From the NCBI GenBank assembly GCA_018694115.1, contig JABHNB010000009.1:11116-75115 (forward strand): 64,000 nt of DNA. The letters run 5' to 3'. Below the pieces are notes generated by a model, which was not told the DNA's origin, searched no databases, and worked only from the letters and a program-made list of their open reading frames with translations. Both the position numbers and the translations under genes were made by a program. The DNA is from an archaeon (lineage in GTDB: Archaea > Nanobdellota > Nanobdellia > Pacearchaeales > GW2011-AR1). Below are positions 4,106 through 56,511 of the stretch, piece by piece. Numbering within the stretch: the first letter of the stretch is position 1; every line of letters begins with the position of its first letter.

Positions 4106-4197
4106 TCCCCGTATACACCTTTGTATGCAAAAAAAGGTTTACCTTTGGTAAGAGGAAATATGGAAAGCTTTAAAAAGAAAGTTTCTTACAATATTTT

Positions 4198-8320: not shown

Positions 8321-8721
8321 ACAAGAAAGGGTATACACAATTTATTGTTATTGGATTTATAGTTCTTGCAATCTGGGGGATTGTCTCCTCATTGGGATGG
8401 GTAGGTTCAAATAATAAACTTGATACAGAGCAGGAAAAAACTGATTATTGGAAAGGATTGAATTCCCAGTGCCAGCAAGAATTGGGCATAGCCTGTGAAC
8501 AAATTGAGGATCAGACAAAAACTATATCAGATCTTCAAGGAAAAATTGGAATTCTTGAAAATCAGAACAATTCAGATAAGTATGCTGTTTTATGGATAGG
8601 TCCTGAAATAATAATCAACGAAACATGGGCTATTATAATTAATATTGGATTAAGCATTTCTCTAATATCAGTATCCTTTACTTTAAAATTTGTTTTTGGA
8701 GGAGACAAAAAAAGAAAATGA
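8317..8721 (+). CDS. Membrane protein with N- and C-terminal TM helices and a central coiled coil
   Basis: MNKKG start. TM segments at both ends. Overlaps the hsdS stop and the next gene start (ATGA overlaps). Confidence 0.45.
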   Translation: MNKKGYTQFIVIGFIVLAIWGIVSSLGWVGSNNKLDTEQEKTDYWKGLNSQCQQELGIACEQIEDQTKTISDLQGKIGILENQNNSDKYAVLWIGPEIIINETWAIIINIGLSISLISVSFTLKFVFGGDKKRK

Positions 8722-9332
8722 ATAAAAAAGGTGAAGCTAGTCCTGAGGAAATAATTAAAGCAATTTTTGCAATTATAATAATACTTCCTTTATTCGGAGC
8801 ATTATTCGGAGCGCTAAATGATATCTCTCATCAAAGTGAAAATACCGAGATACAAAAAATAACTAATGAGAAAAACTTAGAGATTGAGAATATTACGAAT
8901 GAGAAAGAGGCGATCACGTCAGAGAGAGATGATTATAAAAGTAGATATGAACAAATTCAAGGAGACTACGATTACCTAATTAATACTAGTGTTACGAAAA
9001 ATGACGTCAATGAAATACACGGAGAAATGAATTCTATTAAAAATTCCTTGGATAGTCTGCATAATAAAACATCAGTGGTTAATCAAAATATAAATCATTT
9101 TTATGACATAAGGCAGACATACATATATTACACAATAAGCGTTGTAATCAACTTTGCAATTCCCATAGTTTTTGTTTTGGATTGGACTTTATTCAACTTT
9201 TCGATTACAGTAAAAATTACTAAAAAAATGAATGGATTTCTTGGAAAATTAAAAACTAAACTAAAGAAAATATTTTTCAAGGAAAAAACTCCTGAAGAGC
9301 AAACAAATAAAAGAGAGGGTGAACAGGAGTAA
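8718..9332 (+). CDS. Membrane protein, paralogue of the preceding gene (N- and C-terminal TM helices, coiled coil)
   Basis: Same MNKKG start and same architecture as 8317..8721. Ends 2 nt before the hsdM start. Confidence 0.45.
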   Translation: MNKKGEASPEEIIKAIFAIIIILPLFGALFGALNDISHQSENTEIQKITNEKNLEIENITNEKEAITSERDDYKSRYEQIQGDYDYLINTSVTKNDVNEIHGEMNSIKNSLDSLHNKTSVVNQNINHFYDIRQTYIYYTISVVINFAIPIVFVLDWTLFNFSITVKITKKMNGFLGKLKTKLKKIFFKEKTPEEQTNKREGEQE

Positions 9333-9334
9333 CT

Positions 9335-10789
9335 ATGGTAGGACTTGAACAAGAATTAAAATCGAAAGTGAGGGGGCTTTGGGATAAGTTTTGGAGTGGT
9401 GGAATTTCTAATCCGCTTCAGGCGATTGAGCAGATTTCTTATTTAATGTATATGAAAAAGCTTGAGGATAAAGATGTTTTGGAAGAACAGAATGCTATTC
9501 TAAAGGGTGAGAAATTTAAGTCTATTTTCGAAAAACATAAAGATTGTCGATGGAGTGAGTGGTCGCAGTATTCTTCGGATAAAATTTTAGATCATGTTCG
9601 AGATGTTGTATTTAAGTTTATGAGGGAATTAGGAGATGAAGATACACTTTACTCAGAATACATGAAGGATGCTACTTTTTCTTTGCCTACTGCTTCGCTA
9701 TTGATTGAGTCTGTGAATATAATTAATGATATGCACATCAAGGAGCAGAATCAAGATACACAAGGAGATATTTATGAGTATTTGCTTTCGGAGTTATCTA
9801 CGGCTGGGAAGAATGGGCAGTTTAGGACGCCGAGACATATTATTCAGATGATGACTGAGCTTGCTAATCCGGAGTTTGGCGATAGAATTATGGATCCAGC
9901 TTGTGGGACTGCGGGGTTTTTGGTTAGTGCGTATGAGCATATTTTGAAAGTAAACAAGAAAGGTGGGGTTAGTACGTTTACACCAAGTAAGAAAAAGATT
10001 TTGGATGAAGATACTTTTTATGGATATGATATTGATAGAACGATGGTTCGAATTGCATTGATGAATTTGATGATGCATGGGATAACTAATCCAAAAATTT
10101 CTCGGACAGATACTTTGTCCAAGAGATATAATGAGAACGGGACTTATGATATAATCTTAGCGAATCCTCCATTCAAGGGGTCGATTGATGTTAGTGAGCA
10201 AAGTGACGAGTTTACTGTTAAGACTAAGAAGACTGAATTGTTGTTTTTGGAATTAATGCATAACTCTTTGTCTAATGGTGGAAGGTGTGCTGTGATTATT
10301 CCTGATGGCGTTTTGTTTGGTAATTCTAATGCACATCAAGGAATTAGAAAGATGTTACTAGAAGACTGTCGACTTGATGCGGTTATCTCTATGCCCTCAG
10401 GAATCTTTAAACCATATGCTGGTGTTTCTACTGCAGTTTTATATTTTACAAAGGGTGAGCCAACAAAGGAAGTTTGGTTTTATGATATGCAGGCTGATGG
10501 ATATAGTTTGGATGATAAAAGGAATAAGATTGAGGCGAATGATATTCCGGATATTTTGGAGAGTTTTAAGAATCGAAAGAAAGAAGATAATACTGACAGG
10601 AAGGCTAAGCATTTTATTGTTCCGGTGGAAGAGATTAAGGAGAATAATTTTGATTTGAGTTTGTCTAAGTACAAGGAGCATGTATACGCGGAAGAAGTTT
10701 ATCGGGAGCCTGGAGTTATTTTAGAAGAGATTGGGAAGACTCATGTTGAATTGAGTAAGGATATTGAAGATTTGAAGAAGTTGGTTTGA
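9335..10789 (+). CDS. hsdM: Type I restriction-modification N6-adenine DNA methyltransferase (HsdM)
   Basis: N6-MTase motif IV ILANPPF. SAM-binding motif I DPACGTAGFL. N-terminal HsdM_N-like region. 484 aa. Confidence 0.9.
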   Translation: MVGLEQELKSKVRGLWDKFWSGGISNPLQAIEQISYLMYMKKLEDKDVLEEQNAILKGEKFKSIFEKHKDCRWSEWSQYSSDKILDHVRDVVFKFMRELGDEDTLYSEYMKDATFSLPTASLLIESVNIINDMHIKEQNQDTQGDIYEYLLSELSTAGKNGQFRTPRHIIQMMTELANPEFGDRIMDPACGTAGFLVSAYEHILKVNKKGGVSTFTPSKKKILDEDTFYGYDIDRTMVRIALMNLMMHGITNPKISRTDTLSKRYNENGTYDIILANPPFKGSIDVSEQSDEFTVKTKKTELLFLELMHNSLSNGGRCAVIIPDGVLFGNSNAHQGIRKMLLEDCRLDAVISMPSGIFKPYAGVSTAVLYFTKGEPTKEVWFYDMQADGYSLDDKRNKIEANDIPDILESFKNRKKEDNTDRKAKHFIVPVEEIKENNFDLSLSKYKEHVYAEEVYREPGVILEEIGKTHVELSKDIEDLKKLV

Positions 10790-11944
10790 TTAATTTAAAC
10801 TGACAACCAGCTCCCCCTTCTTAACAAACTCCAGAATCTCTTTCATTTGACCTTCTAACATTCCAACTCTCTCAAGCAAAACTTCTTTCTCATTCTCAGA
10901 TTTTAGTAGCCTCTGTTCAATCTCAGTCTTCGTCACATCAACCAACATATCTTCTTCGCTAATGGTGTCCACCATCCCGAGGAATTCTGAATAGTAATGA
11001 ATTTTGTCTGATTCCTTCCATCCGAATCTATACTTCAATGAACTTTCTGATTTATACCTTGGAAGCCAATAGCAACATGAACAGTGCCTGAAGTGGTACA
11101 TTGTTAGCTCGGAATATTTCTTTCCAGCTAGACTCATTTTGTCCCCTAGGACTTTCTTAGCGAGCCTCTGGAGATACTTATTGACAGATGTGGGCTTGAT
11201 ATCAAATACTCTGTCGTCTGGTCCGATACCCATTATCTTAATGTATTCTTTTATCATGCTAGAACAAAACATTAATTTTATTCGTCTTCCAAAAGTCTTA
11301 CTTATCTCATCTCTAACTTCGACTTCCTTGAAATCTTTATGAAAATCCGAGGTCTTAATGTTGATTAGTTCGCTTGGACTTCTGACCCCTGAGTCGTAGA
11401 GAAACATTATGATCATTCGATAATTATATTTTGCATTATCACAAAGCTGCTTGATTTGCTCTTCGGTTAGATAAACCCACTTCGGTTTTTCTCTGGAAGT
11501 ATCAAGATCTTCGGCTATATCTATTATCTTCGAGCCTTTTTTCTTTTCAACTTTAATGTGCCAGTGCCAAAAAGATTTGAACACTTTGACATAATCTGCA
11601 ACGGATTTATATATTCCTCCTTGTTTTTTTTGAATCTTGCCATTTCGCATATCATTGAAAAAAACAAAGATTTGTTCTTCTGATATGACTCTTATATCCT
11701 TGATATTAAATCTTTCTTCAAATTCTTTGACGATAAAAACCATTCTTTGTCGAATGTTATTTAGTCTGGCATAGCTTCTGGCTCCTTTGATGCTACTTTT
11801 AGAGATATTGAGTCCTCTTTCCATGTCTAATATGTATTTTAGGATTATGTCAGAGCTAGCCTTGCTAATATCCGGGATTCTTCCCTTTATTTTTTCTATC
11901 CAGTTGAAATATCTTTGTTTGTTTTTTTGTGGATCTACTTTCAT
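10790..11944 (-). CDS. Tyrosine recombinase / integrase (phage-integrase family)
   Basis: C-terminal box II YHFRHCSCCYWL (HxxRH) and a downstream Tyr-containing IHYYSE. N-terminal SAM-like domain. Sits 84 bp from the 3' end of tRNA-Glu. Confidence 0.65.
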   Translation of the reverse strand: MKVDPQKNKQRYFNWIEKIKGRIPDISKASSDIILKYILDMERGLNISKSSIKGARSYARLNNIRQRMVFIVKEFEERFNIKDIRVISEEQIFVFFNDMRNGKIQKKQGGIYKSVADYVKVFKSFWHWHIKVEKKKGSKIIDIAEDLDTSREKPKWVYLTEEQIKQLCDNAKYNYRMIIMFLYDSGVRSPSELINIKTSDFHKDFKEVEVRDEISKTFGRRIKLMFCSSMIKEYIKIMGIGPDDRVFDIKPTSVNKYLQRLAKKVLGDKMSLAGKKYSELTMYHFRHCSCCYWLPRYKSESSLKYRFGWKESDKIHYYSEFLGMVDTISEEDMLVDVTKTEIEQRLLKSENEKEVLLERVGMLEGQMKEILEFVKKGELVVSLN

Positions 11945-12028
11945 GATTTATCAAGGCTGACCATCTTAAAAGACGGTTTGTATAGTTCTTGTAAAATCGC
12001 ACCCCAGAAATTAGACAGAATATGCGGA

Positions 12029-12101
12029 CGCTCCCGCCGGGATTTGAACCCGGGTCACTGCCGTGAAAGGGCAGCATCCTTGGCCACTAGACTACGAGAG
12101 C
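12029..12101 (-). tRNA. tRNA-Glu (anticodon UUC)
   Basis: Manual fold of GCUCUCG-UA-GUCU...CUGCC-CUUUCAC-GGCAG-UGAC-CCGGG-UUCAAAU-CCCGG-CGGGAGC-G. Acceptor stem 7 bp, T-loop UUCAAAU, anticodon loop CUUUCAC. Confidence 0.8.
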
Positions 12102-12281
12102 ACTACTCGCGTGGTCTTCATGAAACGGTAAACCGTTACTTTAGACTACGAGAGCATGTCTTTATTCACCAATTTTCACTTTTAAAGCTTACGCATCATC
12201 AAATAATCTCCCGGCCGTCGTTACTGATACCTCCCTAAAATGAATCAAAACACATAAAAAGCAACAAATCCCTTAAATCCT

Positions 12282-13933: not shown

Positions 13934-14051
13934 TGAGCCTACGGAGATTTGAACTCCGGACCTCTGGCTCTCTTCGAGTGAAGTGAGCTAACGTTCTAGC
14001 GAACATCCATCTTATAAGACCAGCGCTCTAACCTGGCTGAGCTATAGGCTC
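13934..14051 (-). tRNA. Intron-containing tRNA; manual fold gives anticodon UAU (tRNA-Ile UAU) with an intron of about 43 nt after position 37
   Basis: Acceptor GAGCCUA/UAGGCUC. D-stem GCUC/GAGC. Anticodon stem CUGGU/GCCAG with loop CUUAUAA interrupted by the insert. T-arm CGGAG-UUCAAAU-CUCCG. Discriminator A. Confidence 0.55.
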
Positions 14052-25272: not shown

Positions 25273-25298
25273 ATAAAGTATATACTCCAATATATACA

Positions 25299-26240
25299 TT
25301 GGAATATATATGTTACAAACTATATATTAAGATGCAACAAAGACTATCATTCCACGAGGAAATAAGAAGGAACAAAATCCAATCATTTTTCTTAATCACA
25401 ATTGTCTTCATAGTTCTTCTAGCCCTAGTTTATACCGTTGGGTTAATTGTCGGGGGAGATTTCTTTTTCTTCATCCTAATCTTTGGAACAATAATCTCAA
25501 TTCTTTACGTAGTCGGCGGATATTACAAATCCGCAGATCTCGCAATCGCATCAGTAAATGCAAAGAAAGCCCCACAATCAGATCCAAAATTTCGACAATA
25601 TCATAATATCGTAGAAGGATTATGTCTCGCATCCGGACTTCCAAAACCAAAACTCTTTGTTATGGAGAATCCTCAAATTAACGCATTCGCATCAGGCAGA
25701 GATCCAAAGCATGCTGTGATCTGTGTAACAACCGGAACTATAGAAAAACTTAACAAACAAGAGCTTGAAGGAGTTCTAGCTCACGAACTCTCCCACGTAG
25801 CAAACTATGACATCCGTTTTATGACCCTAACTGCCGTTCTCGTGGGTATTATCGCGATCGTCTCCCAGATCTTCCTTAGAAGCATGTTTTGGGGGGCAGG
25901 AAGCCGGAATAGTGGTGGGGGCGGAAATGATAATGGTCAAGGAAAACTAATAATAATGGCAATTGGAATAACCTTAGCAATCTTAGCACCAATCATTGTA
26001 GCATTAGTACAATTAGCAATCTCACGAAAAAGGGAATATGCCGCGGATTCTTCAGCAGTTAAGTTCATGAGAACTCCAACAGGATTAATCGGAGCCCTAA
26101 AGAAAATCCAACATAATTCTGATATGAAAGTCTCCGGAGCAGTAGCCCCATTATTCCTAGCAAAACCAAAGAAGGAACGAGAATGGTTTCAAACACATCC
26201 TCCGCTTAACAAGAGAATAACCAGATTAGAAAGGATGTAG
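25299..26240 (+). CDS. htpX: M48 zinc metalloprotease HtpX-like
   Basis: HELSHVANYD HExxH motif, multiple TM helices, and a Gly-rich insert. Confidence 0.75.
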   Translation: MEYICYKLYIKMQQRLSFHEEIRRNKIQSFFLITIVFIVLLALVYTVGLIVGGDFFFFILIFGTIISILYVVGGYYKSADLAIASVNAKKAPQSDPKFRQYHNIVEGLCLASGLPKPKLFVMENPQINAFASGRDPKHAVICVTTGTIEKLNKQELEGVLAHELSHVANYDIRFMTLTAVLVGIIAIVSQIFLRSMFWGAGSRNSGGGGNDNGQGKLIIMAIGITLAILAPIIVALVQLAISRKREYAADSSAVKFMRTPTGLIGALKKIQHNSDMKVSGAVAPLFLAKPKKEREWFQTHPPLNKRITRLERM

Positions 26241-46020: not shown

Positions 46021-47025
46021 TTAGTTCCCGTTATTCTGAGCAGCCATTGCAGCTTCATATTCCGCAATAGTTGTTCTTGCCAAATCATTTAGGCCTTCAA
46101 CCATTGGAATAACCTGTTCAAGAGCATTCTGGGAGAATTCTCCGATACTTGCTCTTTTGTTCTGCATCCATTGCTGAAGTTCCTGAACCTTTTCCTGAGC
46201 CGGTTCTGGACCAAGTGCTTCCAATTTGCTCCTAACTTCTTGATTAAGGGCCATAATGCCTTCTGCCTGATCATTACCATAGGCATCAGCTAACTTAATA
46301 TTATCTGCAACGAACTTAGGGAATCCGTATTCTCCAACTGTTCTAATTGCCTTATTCTTTGCATTAATTCCAAATTCATCAACTATTCTATCCTTGAATG
46401 GCGTAAAAAATGCCATTTCAATAGGTTTAAGATTCTCTGCCTTACCTGCAAAATAAGCCTCAGGATCATCAGAAATGGCCTTCTGTTCAGCCCTATAAAA
46501 TTCAATAGCATCAACAACTGGATCAAAACTAGCCCCCCTACCTTTCTTAAAAGTCGGCATTGTAAATACCATGTTGAATAGACCTTCTCCTCTTCCTTCC
46601 ATCCATGCGATTTCAGCAAGAGCATTAGCATATTTAACTCCGTATTGAGTCATTCCATCTTGAGCAACCATAACACTACCTTTTCTAGCAGCCTCTACTT
46701 GTGCGGACGGAAGTCCTGCCAAAGCATCTTTATTACCAAGCATTATTTCCGAGAAAGTAGCAATATCTGCTCCAGTTATTTCTTTAGCTTGATCGTATCC
46801 TCTTGCAAAAGTTCCTGCACTCCATCCAGAATCTGCATTTAATGGAGCATAGGCTAGATCAACTAATCCTCCGTCTTCATTAACAAATTGTGTTGGTGTT
46901 ATGAATCTTTCATAATCCCTCACGTTTTCATTTCCATTAACCATGTTTATTTTAGAAATATAGACTTTATAAACCTTTCGGTGTGTTGTATCTGGTGAGG
47001 GGTAACAGAATGCGCATCTAATCAA
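46021..47025 (-). CDS. Hypothetical protein co-transcribed with ppsA
   Basis: Start overlaps the ppsA stop by 4 nt. 334 aa with no recognisable motif. Confidence 0.45.
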   Translation of the reverse strand: MIRCAFCYPSPDTTHRKVYKVYISKINMVNGNENVRDYERFITPTQFVNEDGGLVDLAYAPLNADSGWSAGTFARGYDQAKEITGADIATFSEIMLGNKDALAGLPSAQVEAARKGSVMVAQDGMTQYGVKYANALAEIAWMEGRGEGLFNMVFTMPTFKKGRGASFDPVVDAIEFYRAEQKAISDDPEAYFAGKAENLKPIEMAFFTPFKDRIVDEFGINAKNKAIRTVGEYGFPKFVADNIKLADAYGNDQAEGIMALNQEVRSKLEALGPEPAQEKVQELQQWMQNKRASIGEFSQNALEQVIPMVEGLNDLARTTIAEYEAAMAAQNNGN

Positions 47026-49712
47026 CTAAAAATATCTTCCTTCTTCCTTTCTTCAACTATTTCGATATCACTTGGCTCTGAATTTGGCCGTTCAAATTCT
47101 TCAGTATTAGTTTCAGCAGGTTCCTTATCCACTACTTCAATATCACTTTCTGGAGCCCTAGCTTCTTCCCCATTTCTTTCTGATCCTTCGCTAGAACTAT
47201 CAACAACTTCAATATCATTTTCTTTGTCAACCTGCCTAACTCTCTCTGCTTCATCTTCTACTCGCTCATTCAATTCTTTCTCAACAGATTCCCTATCTCC
47301 GATCGGTTCAATTACACTTTCTCCTCCCGCATTTTCTGGGTTTTCTTCTCTCCGAGGATTATTTTCTACAACCTTATTTCCTTCATTTTCTACAACCCCC
47401 CCATTATTTTCCTTAATGTTTCCATCAACATCTCCACCCTTATCGCCCCCCTCCAATCTCAAAACTAACTCCGAGATTTCCTTAGCAACATCCGCATTAA
47501 CAGAGATAGAATCAATTCCCTGCTTAACTAAGAATTCAACCATCTCTTTTTTAGAACCTGCCTGCCCACAAATAGAAGTCTCAACCCCCTGCTTTCTACA
47601 TTCACGAATCACTCGGGATAATTGTTTCAAAACCGCCCAGTTCATTTCATCATAGATATATTGAACATCTTCATTTCCTCGATCAATTGCAAGAGTATAC
47701 TGCGTCAAATCATTTGTTCCAAATGAAATAAAATCAAGTCCAACTTCACAAAGATCTTTTATCAAGATTGAAGCGGCAGGAGTCTCAATCATAACTCCAA
47801 ATTGAACATTACTAATTCCCATCTCTTCAAAAATCTTCTTAGCTGCCTTTACCTCATCAACAGAAATAACTTGGGGAAACATAACTCCAAATTTATGTCC
47901 CTTATCTGCAAGTTCCTTAATTGCTCCAAGCTCTGCCTTAAAGATTCCAAGATGTTTCAGTGAAAACCTAATCCCGTGATTTCCTAACATTGGATTCTTT
48001 TCAATCTCTTTTGGGGCACCCTTTAGATTAGCATATTCATCACTTCGGATATCTGAGGAACGGATCCAGATTGGCTTTCCAATAAATGTTTCAGCAATCT
48101 TTCCAAGACCCTTAACTAACATGGCCTTATACTCTTCTAAGGTTCCTTCAGCCTCATAAGCAATCGGGTGTTTTCCTGCAGATGCGATTAAACCTTCCAA
48201 TCGAACAAGTCCAACACCGTCCGCATTTGTCTTAGCCGCTCGCTCAGCATATTCTGGTAAGTCAACCATAACTTTTATTCGAGTTTTAGTTTTAACAATT
48301 GGCAAGATTTCAACCTTCTTACTCTGAGCTCTTCCAGAATAAACCTTACCCCTAAAACCATCCACTGTAACTTCCTGACCATCTTCCAAAACCTCTAACG
48401 CATTATCTGTCCCAACAACTGCGGGAATACCCATTTCACGAGATACAATCGCTGCATGTGCTGTGATCCCCCCCTCACTAGTAATAATCGCCGCAGCCTT
48501 TTGCATAGTTACAACCATGTCCGGATTAGTCATTGCAGTAACAAGAACATCACCTTTTCGAATCTTGCCCAAATCTTCCATAGACTTAACAATTTTAACA
48601 ACTCCTGAAGAAATCCCTGGAGATGCGGCAAGTCCTTCCGTTAAAACTGGTCCTTCAAGTTCGTCTCCCTCACCCTCTTCCTTGCCATCACTCCCTGCTT
48701 TCAAGGTCGTAATCGGCCGAGTCTGTAAAATATATATATCCTCATTCTCAATTGCAAATTCAATATCTTGCGGTTTCTTGTAATGTTCTTCTAATTTAAT
48801 CGCATATTCTGCCAACTGCTTCAATTCATAAGTTTTCAAAACTCTCTGTCCGGATTTTTCTGGGCTTAATTGAACTGTTTTTGTAATTCCTGATGCATCT
48901 CTAACAATTGCAATTTTCTTCTCAGCAATTTTCTCATCTACAAGATCAAAAGCCCTAGAAACTGTTTGCTGGTCTGGTTTGATTTTCCCAGAAACAATAC
49001 CTTCCCCTTGTCCAAAGACAGATTCTACCAAGACATCGTCCGTGTTTTTTACTGGATGTCTAGAAAAAATAACTCCGGACTTATCTGAATTAATCATTTT
49101 CTGAACAATCGCGGCAATACCCACAAGATCTTCAAATCCTTTCTTCTTTCGGTAATATATCGACCGGGCTGTAAAAATAGATGCAAAAACTCGCTTGACT
49201 TTTTCAATCAAATCATCATTTCCCTTAACATTGATAAAACTTTCTTGCTGTCCTGCAAAACTTGCATCTCCCAAATCCTCTGCAGTGGCCGAACTTCTAA
49301 CTGAAACAAAAACAGGCTCACGAGCAGATTTCAAAATGGCCAATGCTCCAGGGGAACTTTCAAGACCGCTCAAATCAACATTAAAATTATCATAGGCTTC
49401 CAAAATTTCACTTCTAAGATCCTCGGGCATTTCCGCAGCAACCATGATTTCCCTAATCTCCTTAGCTTTGCTCGAAAGACCATCAGTATCATCAACATCA
49501 ATCTTATTCAAAATCTCTCGAATCTGATCCTTAATCTCCGTCTTTTTCAAAAAATGATCAAATGCCTTAGTTGTGACAACAAAAGCCTGGGGAACCGGAA
49601 ATTTTGAATTAAACATTTCACCAAGATTAGCCCCCTTACCTCCTGCGAGCTTAACATCTTTCTTAGATAAATCGGAAAGCCATGCAATGTACCCCTCTTT
49701 CATAAATTCCAA
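47022..49712 (-). CDS. ppsA: Phosphoenolpyruvate synthase (pyruvate, water dikinase) with ~150 aa acidic C-terminal extension
   Basis: PPDK_N N-terminus LAGGKGANLGEM. Phospho-His domain. PEP-utilising TIM barrel. Extra acidic tail with three DIE(V/I)V(D/E) repeats. Confidence 0.85.
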   Translation of the reverse strand: MEFMKEGYIAWLSDLSKKDVKLAGGKGANLGEMFNSKFPVPQAFVVTTKAFDHFLKKTEIKDQIREILNKIDVDDTDGLSSKAKEIREIMVAAEMPEDLRSEILEAYDNFNVDLSGLESSPGALAILKSAREPVFVSVRSSATAEDLGDASFAGQQESFINVKGNDDLIEKVKRVFASIFTARSIYYRKKKGFEDLVGIAAIVQKMINSDKSGVIFSRHPVKNTDDVLVESVFGQGEGIVSGKIKPDQQTVSRAFDLVDEKIAEKKIAIVRDASGITKTVQLSPEKSGQRVLKTYELKQLAEYAIKLEEHYKKPQDIEFAIENEDIYILQTRPITTLKAGSDGKEEGEGDELEGPVLTEGLAASPGISSGVVKIVKSMEDLGKIRKGDVLVTAMTNPDMVVTMQKAAAIITSEGGITAHAAIVSREMGIPAVVGTDNALEVLEDGQEVTVDGFRGKVYSGRAQSKKVEILPIVKTKTRIKVMVDLPEYAERAAKTNADGVGLVRLEGLIASAGKHPIAYEAEGTLEEYKAMLVKGLGKIAETFIGKPIWIRSSDIRSDEYANLKGAPKEIEKNPMLGNHGIRFSLKHLGIFKAELGAIKELADKGHKFGVMFPQVISVDEVKAAKKIFEEMGISNVQFGVMIETPAASILIKDLCEVGLDFISFGTNDLTQYTLAIDRGNEDVQYIYDEMNWAVLKQLSRVIRECRKQGVETSICGQAGSKKEMVEFLVKQGIDSISVNADVAKEISELVLRLEGGDKGGDVDGNIKENNGGVVENEGNKVVENNPRREENPENAGGESVIEPIGDRESVEKELNERVEDEAERVRQVDKENDIEVVDSSSEGSERNGEEARAPESDIEVVDKEPAETNTEEFERPNSEPSDIEIVEERKKEDIFS

Positions 49713-49939
49713 GAGCTATACGATTATTTAAAGTTTGTTGTAATAATTTCACTATCTTAGAACCTGCCAGAATCAGAATATCTCATAGTATAACCGAATC
49801 GCCCACTAACTGGGGAACTATCATACTTATTTTGGTTCCATTCATACGGTGATCCCGAAGGCCTTTCAAACACATATCCTTTGGATTCACCATCTCCACA
49901 TCCACATGCCATATTATCTCAATGAATATTAGTCTTTTA

Positions 49940-50175
49940 TGACTTTCGGTCAAATCTACGAAATAAAAAACACAAAGTATGTCCTACAACATATATGATA
50001 CAATATCTATATTGCAATATACTATATTGCACCACATACATTGGGACAAATAAAAAACCAAACTTTGCCCTAAGGGCACCAAATCATCCGAATTTTAAGA
50101 CCGAATTTTAAGAAATAAAAAATGCAAATAAAAAACCAAACCCAAAATCTACGAAATAAAAAACACATAATCAAA
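49940..50175. repeat. AT-rich repeat zone with repeated aaatctacgaaataaaaaacaca units at the compositional boundary
   Basis: Two copies of a ~23-nt unit (about 49952 and 50138) plus further aaataaaaaacaca copies. Seen directly. Confidence 0.45.
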
Positions 50176-50276
50176 TAAAAAACACAAATCCAAAGGCGAG
50201 GAGCCCAAACAGTCAGTAAACTGAAAGTTGGGCCCCTGCCTTGGATACTACGTCTTGACCACCCAGTTAATTGGAC

Positions 50277-50738
50277 TTACTTGGGCGGATACAGAATCAT
50301 AAGAATAACCAGGAAGAAGCAGACGGATATCACAACAAGCGAAGGAACGCTCGGAATGTAATATCCTTCGAGTCTTTCAATCTCCTGGAAACTGAAGACG
50401 CCACGCCCTTTTTCTCCACAATCCACATGGTACCTGTAACCTTTTTCTGCGCCACCAAAATCCCAATCCCGAATAACGCCTATCTTCCCTTCGGCAGCGG
50501 TATCCCGTTGGACGATCTTGATTTGATCATTGATGTGATACGCCGGGCCCCACCACCAGCAGAGGAAGTAAACTCCTGCAAGGAGGAGAATCAGGACCGC
50601 CCACCCCCGGGGAGATATCTCATTCAACTTTTTGGCAACCGCCCTTAGGGGACGGTAAACGACCAGCAAGGCAATGAACCCCCCAATCGTGGCCAACACC
50701 TGCCAATGATCACCGGCTATTTTCAAAAGTTCATCCAT
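50277..50738 (-). CDS. Three-TM membrane protein, tandem paralogue 1 of 4
   Basis: D(H/N)WQVLAT N-terminal TM, W-rich TM2 followed by GPAYHIND, a soluble ~65 aa domain (GxIGxIRDW...F.EI.RL.G), and a C-terminal TM. Confidence 0.55.
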   Translation of the reverse strand: MDELLKIAGDHWQVLATIGGFIALLVVYRPLRAVAKKLNEISPRGWAVLILLLAGVYFLCWWWGPAYHINDQIKIVQRDTAAEGKIGVIRDWDFGGAEKGYRYHVDCGEKGRGVFSFQEIERLEGYYIPSVPSLVVISVCFFLVILMILYPPK

Positions 50739-50836
50739 ACGTCACTTCCTTTCATTCTGTCAATTCTCTTTCTTCTAGCTCATGCACACACTGCACGAGT
50801 AATGCAAGTAAAAAATACTCCCCCTGTCAAGGGCAA

Positions 50837-51322
50837 TTAATCCAACTTATCCCGGACGATCACCAGGAAGCTTCCCAGAATAAATATGATGAAGGATGGA
50901 ATTCCGGGGATATAGGGGCCACCCAAACTCCTTATCTCCGCGAACAGAAACTTATGCTTTGCCCCCCCACACTCCACAAAGTAGGAGTAGTGGGCCATTT
51001 CAAGTTTCCAATCTCTGACCACTCCAATTTTCCCGTTGAGCTCGCTTTGCAGTCGCGTAATCTCAACTTCATCATTGGCGCCATAGACTGGGCCCAACCA
51101 CCAGCTGAAACAATAAACTATCACTGCAAGGAAAACTATCCCGAAGATCGTCCACATCAGCCACTTTCCGGCTACGCGCCCCCGATCAATAGCTTTTCTT
51201 ACCAAACGATAGCCCACAACCAGAACAGCGCAGGTAGCCAACGTGGCCAGCACTTGCCAATTGTCACAGGCCATTTTCCAAAGATCATTCATAACTTCAT
51301 TTCCTTTCATTTCGATTATCAC
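50837..51322 (-). CDS. Three-TM membrane protein, tandem paralogue 2 of 4
   Basis: Same architecture: NWQVLATLA, GPVYGAND, GKIGVVRDW. Confidence 0.55.
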   Translation of the reverse strand: MIIEMKGNEVMNDLWKMACDNWQVLATLATCAVLVVGYRLVRKAIDRGRVAGKWLMWTIFGIVFLAVIVYCFSWWLGPVYGANDEVEITRLQSELNGKIGVVRDWKLEMAHYSYFVECGGAKHKFLFAEIRSLGGPYIPGIPSFIIFILGSFLVIVRDKLD

Positions 51323-51335
51323 AACCTCCCAAGGG

Positions 51336-51400
51336 AGAGCTAGTCATCCGGCCCACTGCCAAACAATCTAGCTCCCCCTTACAATCGACCTCTTAATCGA
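51336..51400. repeat. Conserved ~55-nt intergenic element (copy 1) with an 11-bp inverted repeat gggagagctag...ctagctccccc
   Basis: Near-identical to the copy at 51946-52010. Each lies upstream of a paralogue gene. Confidence 0.45.
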
Positions 51401-51417
51401 GAGAACGACAACTACGC

Positions 51418-51912
51418 CTAGTCACTCGCGCCTTCTTTCAGCTTCAGGGAATCCATATTCGCGGCGAGAGCTATCAGGCTTCCGATTATCATCAGGATAA
51501 GCGGAAAAACACTCGGGATATAGCAGGGGCCTTCAAACCTTTTGAGTTCCTGGAAGTGGAATTTTCCCAGTTCTTTCGCCCCATAATCCACATGATAGAT
51601 GAATCCCCCTGGACGAGGACTTTCCCAATCACGGATTATTCCGACCTTTCCTTCCTCGGGGGTATCTCGTTGGACGATCGTGACCTTTTCGTTGATACCA
51701 TACACCGGTCCAAGGCCCCATGCGAGGAAGTAAATCACTGCCGAGACAATTACCATCCATACGAGGGTCTTCAACACCCAACCCGTAGTGAGATTCACAT
51801 ACCTGGAAGCAACCTTCTTTCCCAAGCGATAAATCACGAAGAGGGAGGCGAAGACAGCCAATGTGGCAAATACCTGCCAGTTGTCGCTCACCATGTTAAC
51901 AAACTCTTTCAT
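51418..51912 (-). CDS. Three-TM membrane protein, tandem paralogue 3 of 4
   Basis: Same architecture: NWQVFATLA, GPVYGINE, GKVGIIRDW. Confidence 0.55.
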   Translation of the reverse strand: MKEFVNMVSDNWQVFATLAVFASLFVIYRLGKKVASRYVNLTTGWVLKTLVWMVIVSAVIYFLAWGLGPVYGINEKVTIVQRDTPEEGKVGIIRDWESPRPGGFIYHVDYGAKELGKFHFQELKRFEGPCYIPSVFPLILMIIGSLIALAANMDSLKLKEGASD

Positions 51913-51945
51913 ATCTCGTTCCTTTCGTTCAATTCATCAAAACCC

Positions 51946-52010
51946 CCAAAAGGGAGAGCTAGTCATCAAGCCCAATGCCCAACAATCTAGCCCTCCCAAG
52001 GGTAACGCCA
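51946..52010. repeat. Conserved ~55-nt intergenic element (copy 2), gggagagctag...ctagccctccc
   Basis: See copy 1. A second, different conserved element (gcacacactgcacgagtaatgcaagta-like) lies upstream of paralogues 1 and 4. Confidence 0.45.
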
Positions 52011-52013
52011 TCG

Positions 52014-52502
52014 TCAATATCCGAAGTTCGAAGAGGATTTATTCAGGACGGGTAATCGCAAGTAGATCACCACACAAACCCCGACGGCCATTAAAACAAG
52101 GATTGGAATGCCCGGGATATGGGGCCCGTTTAACCTCTTCAGGTGCTCAAAACGGAGGCCGTAGGGTTCATCTCCCTTACAATAAACAGAATACACATAG
52201 CCATTGCCCGGAGCGAGACAATTCCAGGATCTGATTATCCCAGTTTCACCATTTACGTCGCTTCGGGGATAAACTATCTCGACTTCGTCGTTGATATGAT
52301 ACGCCGGACCCCACCACCAGGTAAAGAAATAGATCCCGGCTACCACAACAACTGCCAACATGACCGTCTTCAGGAACCATCCACGTGGCAATCCCCGGTA
52401 CTTGGAAACAACCCTCCTTACCACACGATAGCCCATCAGCAAGGCGACACATCCTGCCAGGGTGGCAAACACTTGCCAATGTCCAACAATAAACTCTTTC
52501 AT
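52014..52502 (-). CDS. Three-TM membrane protein, tandem paralogue 4 of 4
   Basis: Same architecture: HWQVFATLA, WWWGPAYHINDE, GETGIIRSW. Confidence 0.55.
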   Translation of the reverse strand: MKEFIVGHWQVFATLAGCVALLMGYRVVRRVVSKYRGLPRGWFLKTVMLAVVVVAGIYFFTWWWGPAYHINDEVEIVYPRSDVNGETGIIRSWNCLAPGNGYVYSVYCKGDEPYGLRFEHLKRLNGPHIPGIPILVLMAVGVCVVIYLRLPVLNKSSSNFGY

Positions 52503-52593
52503 AACTCGTTCCTTTCATTATCTATCTTCATCCCATCTTGCCCGCACACTATGCACGAATAAAACAAGTAGGAAGTAAGTCTTCAGGCGGCGG

Positions 52594-53883
52594 TCAGGAA
52601 GGAGAGGCCAGTTTTATCAGCTTGACCTTTATTTCATCCTTGCTATCCCACCCATATTCGGCCGCTTCCGCAAAGAGATCCAGCCACCATTCGAAGTCGC
52701 CGTCACCGAGTTCCATCAACTTTCCAAGGAAGATTTCTCCGAGATTGTCAGATTCTCCATCTCCGAGCATCTTGTCGTAGGTCTCTTTCCAGAGATTGAA
52801 GTCGCTACACTCCAACTCTCTGAATATTTCGATTATCCTATCCTCAGAAGGCGAGGAACCCTCTGCGTTTGTGAAGAACTCCCACCATTTGTCCGGGCCC
52901 CAATTCCTGGGTCGTTCTTCTATCTGGGTGAGGATCAGTCTTTGCCTGTCATGATCTCCATCAAACATCCCGAAGATAGCCTCCCAGTTCTCAAAGGATA
53001 CCTCTTCTCTCCCTTCGAGTCTTTTAATGAGGGCATCACACATATTTTCCCAGCCATTATCGTTTGCTTCTTCCAGGAATCCTTTCAATGTCTCGAAATC
53101 TTCCTGGGGGAGTTCGGCCACATTTTCTTCGAGAGCATTGTCCGTAGTTTCATCATCGGCCACCCTATAGGCCTCCATGAGTTGCCCCATGGTGGTCACT
53201 CTCTTGACCAGTTCTTCACCGATCCTTTCCTCGTGCTGATTGTAGCAGTCCCCACGAAGGGTGCACAACTGTTCAAGGGAGGGATTGGAAGATAAGAGCA
53301 GATCGAGGAAAAGATCTGCGACCATCTTCTTGATGCCCATCTCTTCCTTATCGGCCTCTCCAGATTCTGTATAGATGGTTTTTGCCTGATCGAAAGTTTG
53401 GATGGATCCGCCTACATTTTCGAGAGCGGTCTGTCTGAGGGGAGATCCAGCTTCAGCCACTTCAAGGACAGACTCCCAATCTTCCGGAGTCCTTGCCCTT
53501 CGTGAGATCTGCTCCAGGACTGAACTTTTGAGCGAGGCGTCTCCAGACCTTATGGCCGCATGGCAAAGCTTGATCCAGTTTCCGAATTCCGATCCCACAC
53601 GTTGGAGCATCTGCGTTCCAGCGTGCCGGTGAAGCTCTGACAAATCTTCATTGCCTATCGAGAGTTCGAACAGTCTGAGGTTATTCTCGAATGTTGAAGC
53701 CAATCTGGCGGCTTCACCAAGGGCGCGTTTCTTGAGGGGCTCTTCGGCCTCTCCACTGTAGTACACCTCGATCCACCGATCGAAATTCAGATCGGGGGGA
53801 GGCGCGTTATCTTGCACATTCCAGATTGCAAGAGCTTTCATTACTCCGACCTGGGCGGCCAGAGATTCAAATGACATTTCCAT
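52594..53883 (-). CDS. Acidic all-alpha hypothetical protein (429 aa)
   Basis: Glu/Asp/Trp-rich with internal repeats and no catalytic motif. Confidence 0.45.
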   Translation of the reverse strand: MEMSFESLAAQVGVMKALAIWNVQDNAPPPDLNFDRWIEVYYSGEAEEPLKKRALGEAARLASTFENNLRLFELSIGNEDLSELHRHAGTQMLQRVGSEFGNWIKLCHAAIRSGDASLKSSVLEQISRRARTPEDWESVLEVAEAGSPLRQTALENVGGSIQTFDQAKTIYTESGEADKEEMGIKKMVADLFLDLLLSSNPSLEQLCTLRGDCYNQHEERIGEELVKRVTTMGQLMEAYRVADDETTDNALEENVAELPQEDFETLKGFLEEANDNGWENMCDALIKRLEGREEVSFENWEAIFGMFDGDHDRQRLILTQIEERPRNWGPDKWWEFFTNAEGSSPSEDRIIEIFRELECSDFNLWKETYDKMLGDGESDNLGEIFLGKLMELGDGDFEWWLDLFAEAAEYGWDSKDEIKVKLIKLASPS

Positions 53884-53950
53884 AAGGATTACCTTCTTTC
53901 GTATTATTCTACTTTTTCGATCTATCCCAACACGATGTCAGGACTCTGTT

Positions 53951-54466
53951 TTATCCGTCACTCCGACCTTCAATTTTCTCCAGCTTTTGGATGACTGCAC
54001 GCCGGACTTCGCTTCCCTGGGGGGTTCCGAAATAGACATAGGTGGCCTCCCGTTCCCCTTCAGCTTGTTCGAAGTCTTGCCAGCACTGCGGGATCCATTT
54101 TTGGCGGATAGCCCTCCTTATATCTGAATCTTCCGGAGTGCAAAGATACAGGATCTTCAGTCCCAGTGCACTGTTGGCAGCAAGGCACCTGGACAAATGG
54201 ATCCTTTCAATGCGATTCACAAACTCCGGACTGACCTTCCCGCCGAGGATAACACGAAGGTAGAGCTCGAAAAGCTGTTCCTTGTTCTTCGCATTTTCCA
54301 AATGGCCGATAAAGGTCAGATCATCCATCTCTTGGAGATCCTGAACAAGGCGAATCTGGGAATTCATTAAAGCTTCCCTCGAAAAGCTTTCTTCCTTCAC
54401 CGAACACCCCGGAGACGTCAGGGATCCACAACAGACAACAACCAACAACCAACAAGGCAGTTTCAT
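53951..54466 (-). CDS. Lipoprotein-like secreted protein
   Basis: Probable start at MKLPCWLLVVVCCGSLTSPGCS (signal peptide with a Cys-containing lipobox-like end). The track ORF extends to 54535. Confidence 0.4.
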   Translation of the reverse strand: MKLPCWLLVVVCCGSLTSPGCSVKEESFSREALMNSQIRLVQDLQEMDDLTFIGHLENAKNKEQLFELYLRVILGGKVSPEFVNRIERIHLSRCLAANSALGLKILYLCTPEDSDIRRAIRQKWIPQCWQDFEQAEGEREATYVYFGTPQGSEVRRAVIQKLEKIEGRSDG

Positions 54467-54563
54467 AACAATTCTCCCTTCAGAGAACAAGGAACAGCGC
54501 CGGGCACCCCCCAATAAAACATTACCCGGCCCCATTCAGGTTAGTGAAAAATCAGGCCATCAA

Positions 54564-55154
54564 TTATTCGGCATCGGCAGTCGGAATGTCGCTGAGATCG
54601 ATCGGAGATCCGTCCGCTCCGCGGTAGGTCCTGAGGAGGATGTCCTCTTCGATGTGGCGTTCGTCGCCATTCGGAAGTTTGATTCGGATTACTCCTTCCT
54701 TATCGCGGATAGCGAGAACCACGTCTTTTTCGTCACGCTTCACGATCCCAGTATAGTCATCGACCATGCGACCAGCCGGCGAAAGATGATCATCCACGAA
54801 GTCAGTGTCGGCAGTGTACTGGTCACCGCACCCCTGCTCGCCTGCTGCTATAAGGATATCGTCCAGGTTATCTACCGTGGGCGGAGTCTCCATCATATCC
54901 AGAAGTGCCTCGGCGATTTCGCCAGGAACTTCGTTGAGGATAACAACGCCTTTTTCACCGTCTGCGCCCTGCCAGGTTCCGTCGCCGTCACCGTCAGTTT
55001 CGTTGAGAACGAGAATCACCGGACGGTCGTTATTCTGGCCATATCCGGAGACTTCCATATCCTGTTCGAATGCCACAACGACATCACTCGCGGGAACCTT
55101 GAAGATAAGCTTGCGGGTTGCGGAAACGATTTTAAGACCTTTATCAAAATTCAC
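54564..55154 (-). CDS. Acidic hypothetical protein (196 aa)
   Basis: Asp/Gly-rich with no motif. Confidence 0.4.
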   Translation of the reverse strand: MNFDKGLKIVSATRKLIFKVPASDVVVAFEQDMEVSGYGQNNDRPVILVLNETDGDGDGTWQGADGEKGVVILNEVPGEIAEALLDMMETPPTVDNLDDILIAAGEQGCGDQYTADTDFVDDHLSPAGRMVDDYTGIVKRDEKDVVLAIRDKEGVIRIKLPNGDERHIEEDILLRTYRGADGSPIDLSDIPTADAE

Positions 55155-55407
55155 AATATTCTCCTTTCTCCGTTTTGGGGAGAAAAAAAGTAAGGCCCTA
55201 ACTCTTGTCAGAACCTAAAGATTCCAGCAACTTGCCAGGATCCTTTTAATGTAATGCCATGTTACGTCCCAAAAACTTATCTCCTAATCCTGAGGAGTGT
55301 TTCGAATGTGCTTCACAAAACTCCAGATCGCAATCACTCCAGAAAAAGTGGCCCCCGAAGCGATTAAAATCCCTGCAATCTGCTGTGTCATTTCTACTCC
55401 TTTCTGG

Positions 55408-56511
55408 TCAGCTCTCCTTTGAGCCAAACCATTTACGATAGATTTCATCGTATTTACCGCTTTTCCGAATCTTCAACAAGGCGCGGTTAATCTCTTCTCG
55501 AAGATTGCTTCCTTCAGGTACGGCGAAGCCGTAGTATTGTTTGTCGAAAATCGGACCGACAACCCCCACTTCATCCGGGTGTTGCTGGGCGAAGAAAAGG
55601 ACACTTGGGGAATCGAAGACAACCGCATCAACCTTCTCCTTAAGCAGGAGATCATACGATTCTTGGATAGAAGGTGTAGCAACCACCTTAGCTCCAAGGC
55701 CCTTAAGTGTCGTAACACTTGTAGTGCCTTGTGCAGTGGCGACCGTCTTTCCTCTGAGATCTCCCGGATGGTTGATCACCGATTCAATGGCCTCGATTTC
55801 CCGGACCGTAAAAGCTGTGATGATCGGAGCAGAGACAAGGCCGACAATAACGCAGCCGTTGAGGAAGAGGGGGATGGTTAAGAGCCTTCCCCAAGTCTTC
55901 TTGGGATAGATATCTCCAAAACCTATGGTGGTCTTAATTGCCCAGACACACCAGCATGCATCGAAGAATCCTTTCCAATCGTCTGCGATTACGTCTGCAC
56001 CCTGTTCAGCCCGCCACAACAAGAATCCCCAAACGAAGAATCCAATGAAGAGGATTCCCAAAAGCCCTGCCATCTCCCAGTTGAACAGTCTTCGGAAAAT
56101 AGACGAGAGGATCGAGGCCTTTTTCTTCTGACCTTTGACAACGATCCTCAATCCGGAATTCATATAGTGGTGTGAGAAGTCGAAATTCTCTTCCCGATCC
56201 GCGGTAATAAAGATCCCGGACACTGCCACATCAACCTTCCCTGCCTTAACATCCTGCAGAAGTTGGTCAAATTCCGAACCCTTGTACTGCTTGTACTCAA
56301 TCTCCCAGTTGAGTTCTCCAGCAATCGCCTCAATTATTTCGATGTCTGATCCCGAAAGGCCAGACTTCGTTGAGGAACTTTCCATCACGCATGGGCGGAA
56401 GATTCCCGCACCAATAGTGATTTTCTTTTTTTCCTGCGCTTGCACCGGGGAAACGACTGCCGCCAGAACAAGTACACCAATAACAATCAGAAAGGCGGTT
56501 TTTTGCTTCAC
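55408..56511 (-). CDS. GluR0-type ligand-gated potassium channel: periplasmic amino-acid-binding (SBP_bac_3) domain split by a K+-channel pore module
   Basis: Signal peptide. SBP lobe 1 (KVDVAVSGIFITADREENFDFSHHY). TM. P-loop with K+ selectivity filter TTIGFGD. TM. SBP lobe 2 (TVATAQGTTS...VDAVVFDSP...YGFAVPEGS). Confidence 0.75.
   Translation of the reverse strand: MKQKTAFLIVIGVLVLAAVVSPVQAQEKKKITIGAGIFRPCVMESSSTKSGLSGSDIEIIEAIAGELNWEIEYKQYKGSEFDQLLQDVKAGKVDVAVSGIFITADREENFDFSHHYMNSGLRIVVKGQKKKASILSSIFRRLFNWEMAGLLGILFIGFFVWGFLLWRAEQGADVIADDWKGFFDACWCVWAIKTTIGFGDIYPKKTWGRLLTIPLFLNGCVIVGLVSAPIITAFTVREIEAIESVINHPGDLRGKTVATAQGTTSVTTLKGLGAKVVATPSIQESYDLLLKEKVDAVVFDSPSVLFFAQQHPDEVGVVGPIFDKQYYGFAVPEGSNLREEINRALLKIRKSGKYDEIYRKWFGSKES

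Follow-up and report, generated by a model that had tools for sequence, protein, structure and literature searches.

A probable GC-rich flexible island at a conserved insertion hotspot in an uncultured marine Woesearchaeote, and the intergenic DNA at its right border

Flexible genomic islands encoding exposed parts of the cell envelope are known from the cell-wall-associated island of Haloquadratum walsbyi (PMC4535781) and from a survey of marine bacteria (PMC3478194). The window considered here, a 64,000-nt stretch of contig JABHNB010000009.1, includes a locus that resembles them: the interval 49,713–50,276, where AT-rich archaeal DNA meets a GC-rich block, is probably the right-hand edge of a real flexible island, 40.2 kb long, that fills a conserved hotspot in the chromosome of an uncultured marine Woesearchaeote (DPANN, GTDB Nanoarchaeota). 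Below, “host” refers to the AT-rich part and “island” to the GC-rich block, and L-numbers designate contig loci compared with the window. Like the described surface islands, this one occupies a fixed chromosomal site between core genes, with conserved flanks and content that differs among related lineages; its cargo is of atypical composition and enriched in membrane, secreted, and surface proteins, and mobility genes would not be needed if exchange uses the flanks. Unlike them, it is far GC-richer than its genome, flexible surface islands being usually AT-richer, and it has its own style of ribosome-binding site and terminator, a tRNA gene, bacterial-type sorting signals, and a DPANN host. 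Literature searches turned up neither such islands nor PEP-CTERM proteins described from DPANN archaea.

The compositional break is sharp. GC content per 1-kb bin is 0.31–0.42 over positions 1–50,000 and 0.45–0.53 over 50,001–64,000, with means of 0.374 (1–49,712) and 0.499 (50,277–64,000), and a maximum-likelihood two-segment fit places the change point at 50,194. The junction interval itself has a GC content of 0.35, dropping to 0.27 at 49,916–50,189. The shift is chiefly at synonymous sites, with GC at third codon positions (GC3) rising from 0.318 in host genes to 0.56 in those of the island, and tetranucleotide profiles correlate at r = 0.45 between host and island compared with 0.88–0.97 inside either compartment. 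The 14 open reading frames (ORFs) of at least 80 aa in 50,277–63,948 all run on the minus strand; those of the AT-rich part are split into 31 on the plus strand and 19 on the minus. A first-pass annotation, made from the letters of the window alone, had reported the jump in composition and codon usage, the run of minus-strand genes, and an AT-rich junction with repeated units, and had proposed the tetranucleotide and codon-usage comparison; each of these observations is upheld. Its view of the island was incomplete, since the GC-rich portion in the window (50194..64000, minus strand) is 13.8 of 40.2 kb, making the whole about three times larger, with its left end beside a gene for a DUF87/HerA-like ATPase.

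One explanation put forward for the break was a chimeric assembly join of an AT-rich archaeal and a GC-rich bacterial genome, which would account for the abrupt change and for the bacterial-type families on the GC-rich side. Contigs in some assemblies do end at 50,449–50,488 (L015 and L016, inside the first island gene) and near 63,950–64,000, and island fragments have been binned elsewhere, among them a partial major vault protein (MVP) gene in a metagenome-assembled genome (MAG) labelled “Bathyarchaeota”. Against this, the same junction was recovered by different assemblers from many samples. An exact-protein lookup found the product of 50,277–50,738 on 23 contigs, and among the matches listed, each junction-spanning contig has the MVP block on one side and the genes for phosphoenolpyruvate (PEP) synthase and glutamyl-tRNA synthetase (GluRS) on the other. 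Also among the matches listed, the junction protein and PEP synthase occur together on JGI 3300004111 and 3300072015 and on ENA ERZ23491424, ERZ23491651, ERZ4201006, ERZ4200961, and ERZ27237598. The reciprocal lookup with PEP synthase gave the same arrangement. The junction-bearing contigs were built by SPAdes-, MEGAHIT-, and JGI-style assemblers from different samples, and the compared junction loci are 99.93–100% identical to the window.

An outward walk via L006, L097, L098, and L099 follows the GC-rich same-strand array for 26.4 kb past base 64,000 to a left edge at L098:2678, where GC drops to 0.35–0.38 within the DUF87/HerA-like ATPase gene, so that 40 kb from the junction the block gives way again to AT-rich archaeal DNA. 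Once merged, the region spans 52,807 bp, of which the island is about 40.2 kb with a GC content of 0.496. At least six further contigs span the left edge, and the whole island with both flanks is present on one 177-kb scaffold and one 385-kb contig. The contig breaks near 64,000 are accounted for by a 138-nt exact repeat common to two paralogous genes, and relatives independently have the same architecture. Because the archaeal flanks adjoin in related genomes, a chimera would need two coincident joins at syntenic positions, and its probability is close to negligible. At the contig level, the junction and the island are genuine chromosome, and the island occurs in every examined assembly of this population.

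Two cases of mis-filing in public MAGs were seen. A partial MVP 100% identical to that of the island (P0001, NCBI HN588_16100) is in a “Candidatus Bathyarchaeota” bin, and a relative's contig with PEP synthase and island genes (L024, JABIAA010000099.1) is in a MAG labelled “bacterium”. Both are probably mis-binned because of their atypical composition. Software for binning and quality control takes an abrupt change in composition for contamination, and chromosomal status here rescues 40 kb of accessory genome of a marine DPANN archaeon.

The interval between the HerA-like gene and PEP synthase is a clade-wide variable hotspot. Its right-hand anchor is the 893-aa PEP synthase (47022..49703, minus strand; Pfam PPDK_N, PEP-utilizers, and PEP-utilizers_C; GC3 0.29); its left-hand flank gene, outside the window at L098:33-1832, encodes a DUF87 P-loop ATPase with weak similarity to CedD (the Ced DNA-import ATPase), HerA, and VirB4/TraC-type proteins, all far below curated cut-offs. 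A scan using one genome per species found 80 PEP synthase loci at 50–78% identity, mostly labelled Woesearchaeota, Pacearchaeota, or Nanoarchaeota. The genes downstream of PEP synthase are syntenic among relatives, and the hotspot flank genes are 59–78% identical across them. Compared with the 40.2 kb found here, the distance from the HerA-like gene to PEP synthase is just 0.77 kb in L037, where the site is empty, and 1.5–7 kb in eight other relatives (1.5–4.4 kb in L033, L029, L035, L031, L030, and L020, and about 7 kb in L017 and L026), while in L023 and L028 the insert is longer than the readable 10 kb. Inserts are GC-richer than their own flanks in L023, L017, L026, L028, L033, L106, and L107 (in L033 and L023, 0.50 compared with 0.36–0.40), though not in L020, where the insert is not GC-rich. 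They consist of small co-directional genes, many with Shine-Dalgarno (SD) sequences, coding for membrane or secreted proteins. By tblastn, the only cargo shared with this island is a PEP-CTERM protein and two small neighboring genes, i22185 and i22478. Similar island-flanking sequence in related genomes had been named beforehand as what would favor an island, and the HerA-like and PEP synthase neighbors, several with GC-rich inserts between them, provide it.

Within the island there are about 58 ORFs separated by short spacers, and 91% of the sequence is coding with the standard code. Protein tests were run on the 50 products of at least 80 aa. A hydrophobic or transmembrane (TM) segment is present in 34 (68%) of these, compared with nine of 50 host proteins (18%), in keeping with the membrane and secreted cargo originally proposed. 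Eight tandem paralogue families take in 21 of the 50, at 25–43% identity except for one pair at 78%. Apart from the families discussed below, matches were limited to a zinc ribbon and a weak one to the GspF N-terminal domain; PHROGs returned only unknown-function or K+ transporter families, and a PADLOC scan for a defence island gave one marginal match. Three families were searched for widely (the four-paralogue TM1-4 family, the PEP-CTERM protein, and a 164-aa ORFan, which matched only itself), and in 1.8–5.8 billion proteins none has close relatives outside this Woesearchaeal clade. Of the taxonomic matches on the two sides of the junction, those of PEP synthase are archaeal-labelled and named MVP relatives are bacterial; the other tested island families have no outside match. 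No donor was found in these searches, the best outside match to MVP being just 42% identical.

The PEP-CTERM protein, encoded beyond the window at L006:4323-5297, scores 18.8 bits to TIGR02595 (cut-off 16). Its relatives score 25.2 bits to the same model in L023 and 25.2 to PF07589 (cut-off 20.7) in L026, and all three agree with the curated model in having the PEP motif, a TM helix, and a basic cluster, and are homologous over their full length. A profile search of 5.8 billion proteins gave only a handful of members, two of them on further Woesearchaeal contigs (L106 and L107) that again have a GC-rich ORFan array followed by PEP synthase. Across five species, the homologues at this locus have GC3 values of 0.58–0.70 compared with 0.29–0.40 in the adjoining PEP synthase, and they are 25–31% identical (one pair 60%) where the PEP synthases are 75–89% identical. 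No exosortase or archaeosortase was found in the island or the 64-kb window. In L028, the C-terminus of the product of 5511-6533 matches OMP_b-brl (31.1 bits, cut-off 28.7), unexpected in an archaeon.

Several of these features could also belong to a degraded or unrecognizable integrated mobile element, a provirus or plasmid of an element family that targets the locus by the HerA-like gene and tRNA-Val and keeps its own base composition. Classical tRNA-linked integrase islands (PMC2704930) are similar in being large, compositionally deviant blocks with presence varying among relatives and a tRNA near one edge. They differ in that here there is no integrase, no flanking direct repeat marking insertion at a tRNA, and no other mobility gene, and the tRNA is inside the island and not split; a textbook example, the integrase/tRNA-Glu/type I restriction-modification element at 1,361–12,102, is found in the same window. 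Another parallel is with proviruses and phages bearing tRNAs and ribozymes, which share the co-directional ORFan array with its own composition. The island has a complete tRNA-Val(TAC) gene 1 kb inside its left edge (L098:3714-3787), and island tRNA-Val genes are alike among themselves and unlike the host-type tRNA-Val of L029, L033, and L035. Relatives' inserts have more tRNAs, one with a UCA anticodon, as well as Twister-P5 ribozymes, and several species have different GC-rich cargo at the same site. DPANN viruses are poorly known, so hallmark genes could escape detection.

What tells against such an element is the lack of anything recognizably mobile or viral. None of the 50 island proteins has a Pfam or PHROGs match to an integrase, recombinase, transposase, replication, capsid, portal, or terminase family, and no virion, packaging, or integration gene is detectable at the level of sequence families. 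An IMG/VR scan with the MVP protein gave no locus, not even one with an identical MVP gene; megablast against phage and plasmid collections gave no DNA match; there is no integrase paired with attachment (att) sites and no att-like direct repeat at the edges; and no circular or free form was seen among contigs carrying island genes. The content is mostly old tandem families of membrane-protein paralogues. The provirus suggested in the first-pass annotation thus gained no positive support. The degraded element is the main rival nonetheless, on account of the island tRNA and the relatives' tRNAs and ribozymes, though it is unlikely.

Hotspot inserts of at least six species have tRNA genes. Besides that at L098:3714-3787, they are located at L035:7574-7646 and 8261-8332; L031:6754-6823 and 7599-7668; L023:497-571; L106:1064-1154, 1518-1617, and 4559-4631; and L107:2469-2582. 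The L023 gene is 75 nt long with a UCA (opal-reading) anticodon, and those in L106 and L107 include tRNA-like genes with 20–40-nt insertions. Stop-codon recoding, considered because of the L023 tRNA, was rejected: reassigning any of the stops lifts ORF coverage equally. A “bacterial-type” label for the island tRNA was also dropped, as host tRNAs in the window have the same D- and T-arm motifs. Twister-P5 ribozymes occur between small co-directional genes at L107:1122-1198, L107:1796-1876, and L106:7899-7978, scoring 41.7–43.7 bits (Rfam cut-off 37.6); this island gave no match even when the threshold was permissive.

Co-directional genes, mostly small and single, closely spaced and often followed by a hairpin, in content that varies by species at a fixed site, also recall an integron, in this case an attC cluster without integrase that would have captured promoterless bacterial cassettes. 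Integrons have been reported in archaeal MAGs. Here, no IntI or other tyrosine recombinase was found in or beside the island, and the folded intergenic spacers have no common recombination-site core, as judged by inspection and not with an attC covariance model. The hairpins are a heterogeneous set of GC stems leading into T-runs, among which no R''/R' pair (RYYYAAC...GTTRRRY) recurs; multi-gene modules and a 2.8-kb gene are atypical of cassettes; and a uniform GAAAGGA site together with tandem paralogues argues for one coherent origin, not many donors. A cassette array is highly improbable.

Expression signals also distinguish the two compartments. Using one start-picking rule for both, and counting TATA-like boxes 15–50 nt upstream, strong SD sequences are found ahead of 60% of island and 12% of host genes, and TATA-like boxes ahead of 4% and 37%, respectively, those of the host about 25 nt before the ATG. 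The first-pass annotation had assigned the SD sequences to the AT-rich part, which is the reverse of what was found. The island ribosome-binding site is uniform, GAAAGGA(A/G) or AAGGAG at 6–9 nt before the start. Many island spacers have a GC stem followed by T-runs, and hairpin-plus-T sites number 29 in the island compared with 14.5±4.1 expected, and 17 in the host compared with 17.3. Sigma-70 promoters are not enriched in the island (12 compared with 10.6 expected).

These signals bear on a further possibility, that the region is native and that a local process has raised its GC content, such as GC-biased gene conversion among the many tandem paralogues of a recombination hotspot. The tested families are private to the clade, homologues in five species have high GC3 whatever the host GC, the locus is clearly recombinogenic, and a pair of paralogues with identical 5' ends and bodies just 38% identical suggests ongoing gene conversion. 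The shift extends to ribosome-binding sites, terminators, and tetranucleotide usage, however, and MVP, the GluR0-type channel, and PEP-CTERM are otherwise typical of bacteria. The L020 insert at the same hotspot is not GC-rich, and a move from GC3 0.32 to 0.56 by gene conversion alone would be extreme. A wholly native origin is quite unlikely.

The flexible-island reading can be stated more fully as follows. The cargo would have come from outside the host lineage, as bacterial-type families, and would long have resided in a gene pool restricted to this Woesearchaeal clade. Exchange or replacement may proceed by recombination in the conserved flanks, perhaps aided by the tRNA-Val near the ATPase gene, with diversification in place by tandem duplication and by gene conversion of 5' ends. 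By analogy with the surface islands of marine prokaryotes, the island might supply variable cell-envelope or cell-contact proteins. Of the recent, horizontally acquired island first suggested, a compositionally foreign block variably present at a hotspot is retained. “Recent” is not supported, because the three tested families are clade-private, paralogues have diverged to 25–43% identity, and GC-rich homologues occupy the same locus in at least five species.

A number of observations weigh against this account. Pfam found no mobility genes, conjugation included, in the 50 island proteins, nor did precomputed annotations of all called genes; a k-mer comparison of the two edges for att direct repeats gave only the 12-mer AATCCAAAGGAT (0.19 expected); and no island-free (empty-site) variant was found among this population's contigs. 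With no mobility gene, repeat beyond the 12-mer, or empty-site variant, any mechanism of gain is hypothetical. TATA-like boxes are few in the island (4%), and its expression in the archaeon is putative. A long-resident island should have drifted to host GC and has not; its persisting composition better fits continuing input from an unsampled GC-rich pool or a local GC-raising process. Candidates for the upkeep of GC3 near 0.6 are exchange with a GC-rich mobile pool, GC-biased gene conversion, and selection. The PEP-CTERM proteins do not co-diverge with PEP synthase (25–31% compared with 75–89% identity), which makes vertical inheritance conjectural. Finally, PEP-CTERM, lipobox, and outer-membrane protein (OMP) beta-barrel (L028) signals normally need diderm-bacterial machinery, making a role at the archaeal cell surface an assumption.

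In a more speculative proposal, the hotspot islands are a cross-domain “effector” compartment, a private, fast-evolving pool of genes in bacterial style (strong SD sequences, hairpin-plus-T terminators, GC of about 50%) for interaction with a bacterial host or even for delivery into it. PEP-CTERM, the lipobox, the OMP-type barrel, the GluR0-type channel, and the vault-like protein would then have a use solely in or on a Gram-negative cell, and the DUF87/HerA/CedD-like ATPase family, with a member encoded beside the pool, includes DNA translocases; the bacterial-type sorting signals and the adjoining ATPase gene allow such a role but do not support it. If it were true, this DPANN clade would live on bacteria, not archaea, and in its extreme form the island would work like T-DNA. 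It is considered very unlikely.

The locus reveals a clade-wide hotspot that accumulates GC-rich, bacterial-style envelope genes. DPANN archaea must physically touch their host cells, and few hosts of Woesearchaeota are known. The search for host-contact factors could naturally begin with a variable island like this one, with its membrane and secreted proteins; its bacterial-type sorting signals pose the question of whether some of these archaea are associated with bacteria. That families private to the clade keep GC3 at about 0.6 within an AT-rich genome also makes this a clean natural case for studying amelioration of foreign DNA.

At the junction itself, the minus-strand order from island to PEP synthase, which are co-directional, is the last island stop codon at 50,277, a stem-loop, six oligo-T units with a hairpin, a 51-aa ORF, and the promoter region AAACTTTAAATAAT. 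The GC-rich stem-loop (50188..50246, minus strand; 59 nt) begins 30 nt past the stop and is followed by T-runs; with a folding energy of -34.6 kcal/mol (z=-4.9) it looks like a terminator, and the change point at 50,194 falls within it. The six oligo-T units TTTTTTATTT, within a minus-strand cluster at 49952..50182, are at 49961-49970, 50048-50057, 50113-50122, 50126-50135, 50154-50163, and 50173-50182; on the minus strand of the window, TTTTTTATTT runs are confined to these six (49,961–50,182). The repeat noticed in the first-pass annotation, the 23-nt unit AAATCTACGAAATAAAAAACACA, belongs to this cluster and has exactly two copies (49,952–49,974 and 50,145–50,167) where shuffled sequences give an expectation of 0. 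Interleaved with the last oligo-T units is a near-perfect 66-nt hairpin (49980..50048, minus strand; -29.6 kcal/mol, z=-5.4, 0 of 200 shuffles as good).

The hairpin includes, at about 50007–50045, a copy of a clade-conserved TATA-rich core with consensus CTATATACTACAATATACTATATTAAACATATATATTA. The core is recognizable in about 20 relatives, usually with TTTTTTATTTC units before and after (in L018, L020, L021, L039, L106, and L107 these bracket it upstream of PEP synthase), and in this window and L017 it is inverted relative to most. Loci with its exact 14-nt seed, TATAGTATATTGYA, have it once only, and invariably a short way upstream of PEP synthase. As the repeats are conserved in this position in relatives, they are host intergenic elements, not insertion scars. 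Nearest PEP synthase, a TATA-like box TTTAAATA (49725..49732, minus strand) lies about 21 nt before the ATG, inside the conserved motif AAACTTTAAATAAT, and the AAAC(A/T)TTTATATA block of this promoter region is invariant in 12 relatives; from its sequence, the promoter is likely of a leaderless or short-leader host type. Oligo-T tracts are termination sites of archaeal RNA polymerase. The oligo-T cluster may thus terminate archaeal transcription or insulate the PEP synthase promoter from the island, and the core accompanying it may be regulatory. The junction as a whole is host intergenic DNA, in which the island's last hairpin terminator is followed by an oligo-T cluster that should stop read-through, the TATA-rich core, and the PEP synthase promoter.

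The small ORF between the conserved element and PEP synthase (49760..49915, minus strand; 51 aa) is called by some pipelines; its status as a gene is doubtful, and tblastn found no homologue in relatives. It stands where relatives have a GC hairpin of the type GGGCAGCCGCCC, 30–110 nt upstream of the PEP synthase promoter (L018, L023, L031, and L035, with variants in L028, L029, L033, and L039). Between core and promoter, the stem sequences of these hairpins differ by species and their pairing is kept; they could be terminators of a small transcript. A permissive Rfam search of the junctions gave only chance microRNA-like matches at the palindrome, and nothing at the left edge. A replication origin at the conserved element was considered and rejected: no Orc1/Cdc6 gene adjoins it, an unwinding element framed by paired inverted repeats is lacking, and the skew does not inflect at 50 kb. 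An intergenic element at 25279-25315, also TATA-rich and near-palindromic, resembles the core, which may be one of a broader class of promoter or operator sequences in the genome.

The island genes in the window, all on the minus strand, begin at the junction with four tandem paralogues, TM1-4, of 153–164 aa (50277-50738, 50837-51310, 51418-51912, and 52014-52502; 36–43% pairwise identity). Each consists of a small soluble domain between two N-terminal TM helices and one at the C-terminus, and each is preceded by an SD sequence of the type GAAAGGAA. In a hidden Markov model search of 1.84 billion representatives, only the paralogues themselves were found at E<1e-10, and by this measure the family is private to this population. 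Three ORFans without a Pfam or PHROG family follow: an acidic helical protein of 429 aa (52594-53883), a putative lipoprotein of 171/194 aa (53951-54535), so called because a cysteine comes after its signal-peptide-like N-terminal segment, and a third protein of 196 aa (54564-55154). The next gene (55408..56511) encodes a GluR0-type ligand-gated K+ channel with matches to SBP_bac_3 (1.5e-29), Ion_trans_2 (7e-11), Lig_chan-Glu_bd (1.7e-8), and the NCBIfam GlnH-like model (2.5e-40); it has an N-terminal signal peptide, and a two-TM pore splits the periplasmic amino-acid-binding domain. Three further ORFans come next, of 166 aa (56799-57299), 85/101 aa (57422-57727), and 191 aa (57779-58354). The gene directly downstream of MVP (58367-59029) encodes 220 aa, with two TM helices and one coiled coil. 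The 166-aa gene varies among strains, with an A-to-C single-nucleotide polymorphism at 56957 in L004 and L013 and a 14-bp insertion at 56981/56982 in L003 that changes the product from 166 to 142 aa.

Prokaryotic MVP homologues (bioRxiv 10.1101/872010) have been reported from bacteria and recently from Asgard archaea (PMC12962969), and no report from DPANN archaea was found in the literature. The homologue here (59191..61947, minus strand; 918 aa) has a Pfam MVP_shoulder match of 9.1e-25 (87.4 bits, cut-off 25), and its residues 519–871 match solved eukaryotic MVP chains in the PDB at E of about 1e-11 to 1e-12. Its best non-self relatives are about 42% identical over 96–99% of the query, and those with a named source are bacterial. 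As its shoulder domain passes the Pfam threshold and it resembles named MVPs from end to end, it can be assigned to the family on sequence grounds. It is unlike other prokaryotic MVPs in its DPANN host, its foreign-looking island, and an inserted acidic low-complexity stretch near the N-terminus, and no vault partner genes were recognized near it. The best outside match, P0002 (L105:8001-10586), is on an archaeal-looking contig with an aIF5A-like neighbor, as a lone gene of GC 0.59 in a background of 0.47; MVP genes may have entered archaea more than once. A conserved MVP operon was considered and discarded, as the neighbors of the two best outside matches share nothing with the island.

The last island gene in the window (62464..63948, minus strand) encodes a protein of 494 aa that begins with an acidic stretch, has four TM helices, and ends in a coiled coil, and a 453-aa paralogue is found just past the window end. 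The two are 100% identical over 138 nt covering the upstream region and first codons (window 63863-64000, L006:8461-8598), and beyond this stretch the proteins are only 38% identical; identical 5' ends with diverged bodies suggest gene conversion of the 5' ends. Paralogues of 243, 368, and 361 aa beyond the window also have near-identical N-termini.

On the AT-rich side of the window, the archaeal housekeeping genes noted at the outset are confirmed: these include archaeal-type GluRS, aIF5B/IF-2, Tyr/Trp-tRNA synthetase, and CTP synthase. An intron-containing tRNA (13934-14051, minus strand; Rfam 58 bits), missed by ARAGORN, is a further archaeal hallmark. The separate integrated element mentioned above (1361-12102) encodes HsdR (1361-4105) and HsdM (9335-10789) of a type I restriction-modification system and an AAA_13 ATPase (4430-6598). 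Its tyrosine integrase gene (10790-11944, minus strand) adjoins tRNA-Glu (12026-12102), and the GC content of the element, 0.31–0.34, is below that of the surrounding DNA.

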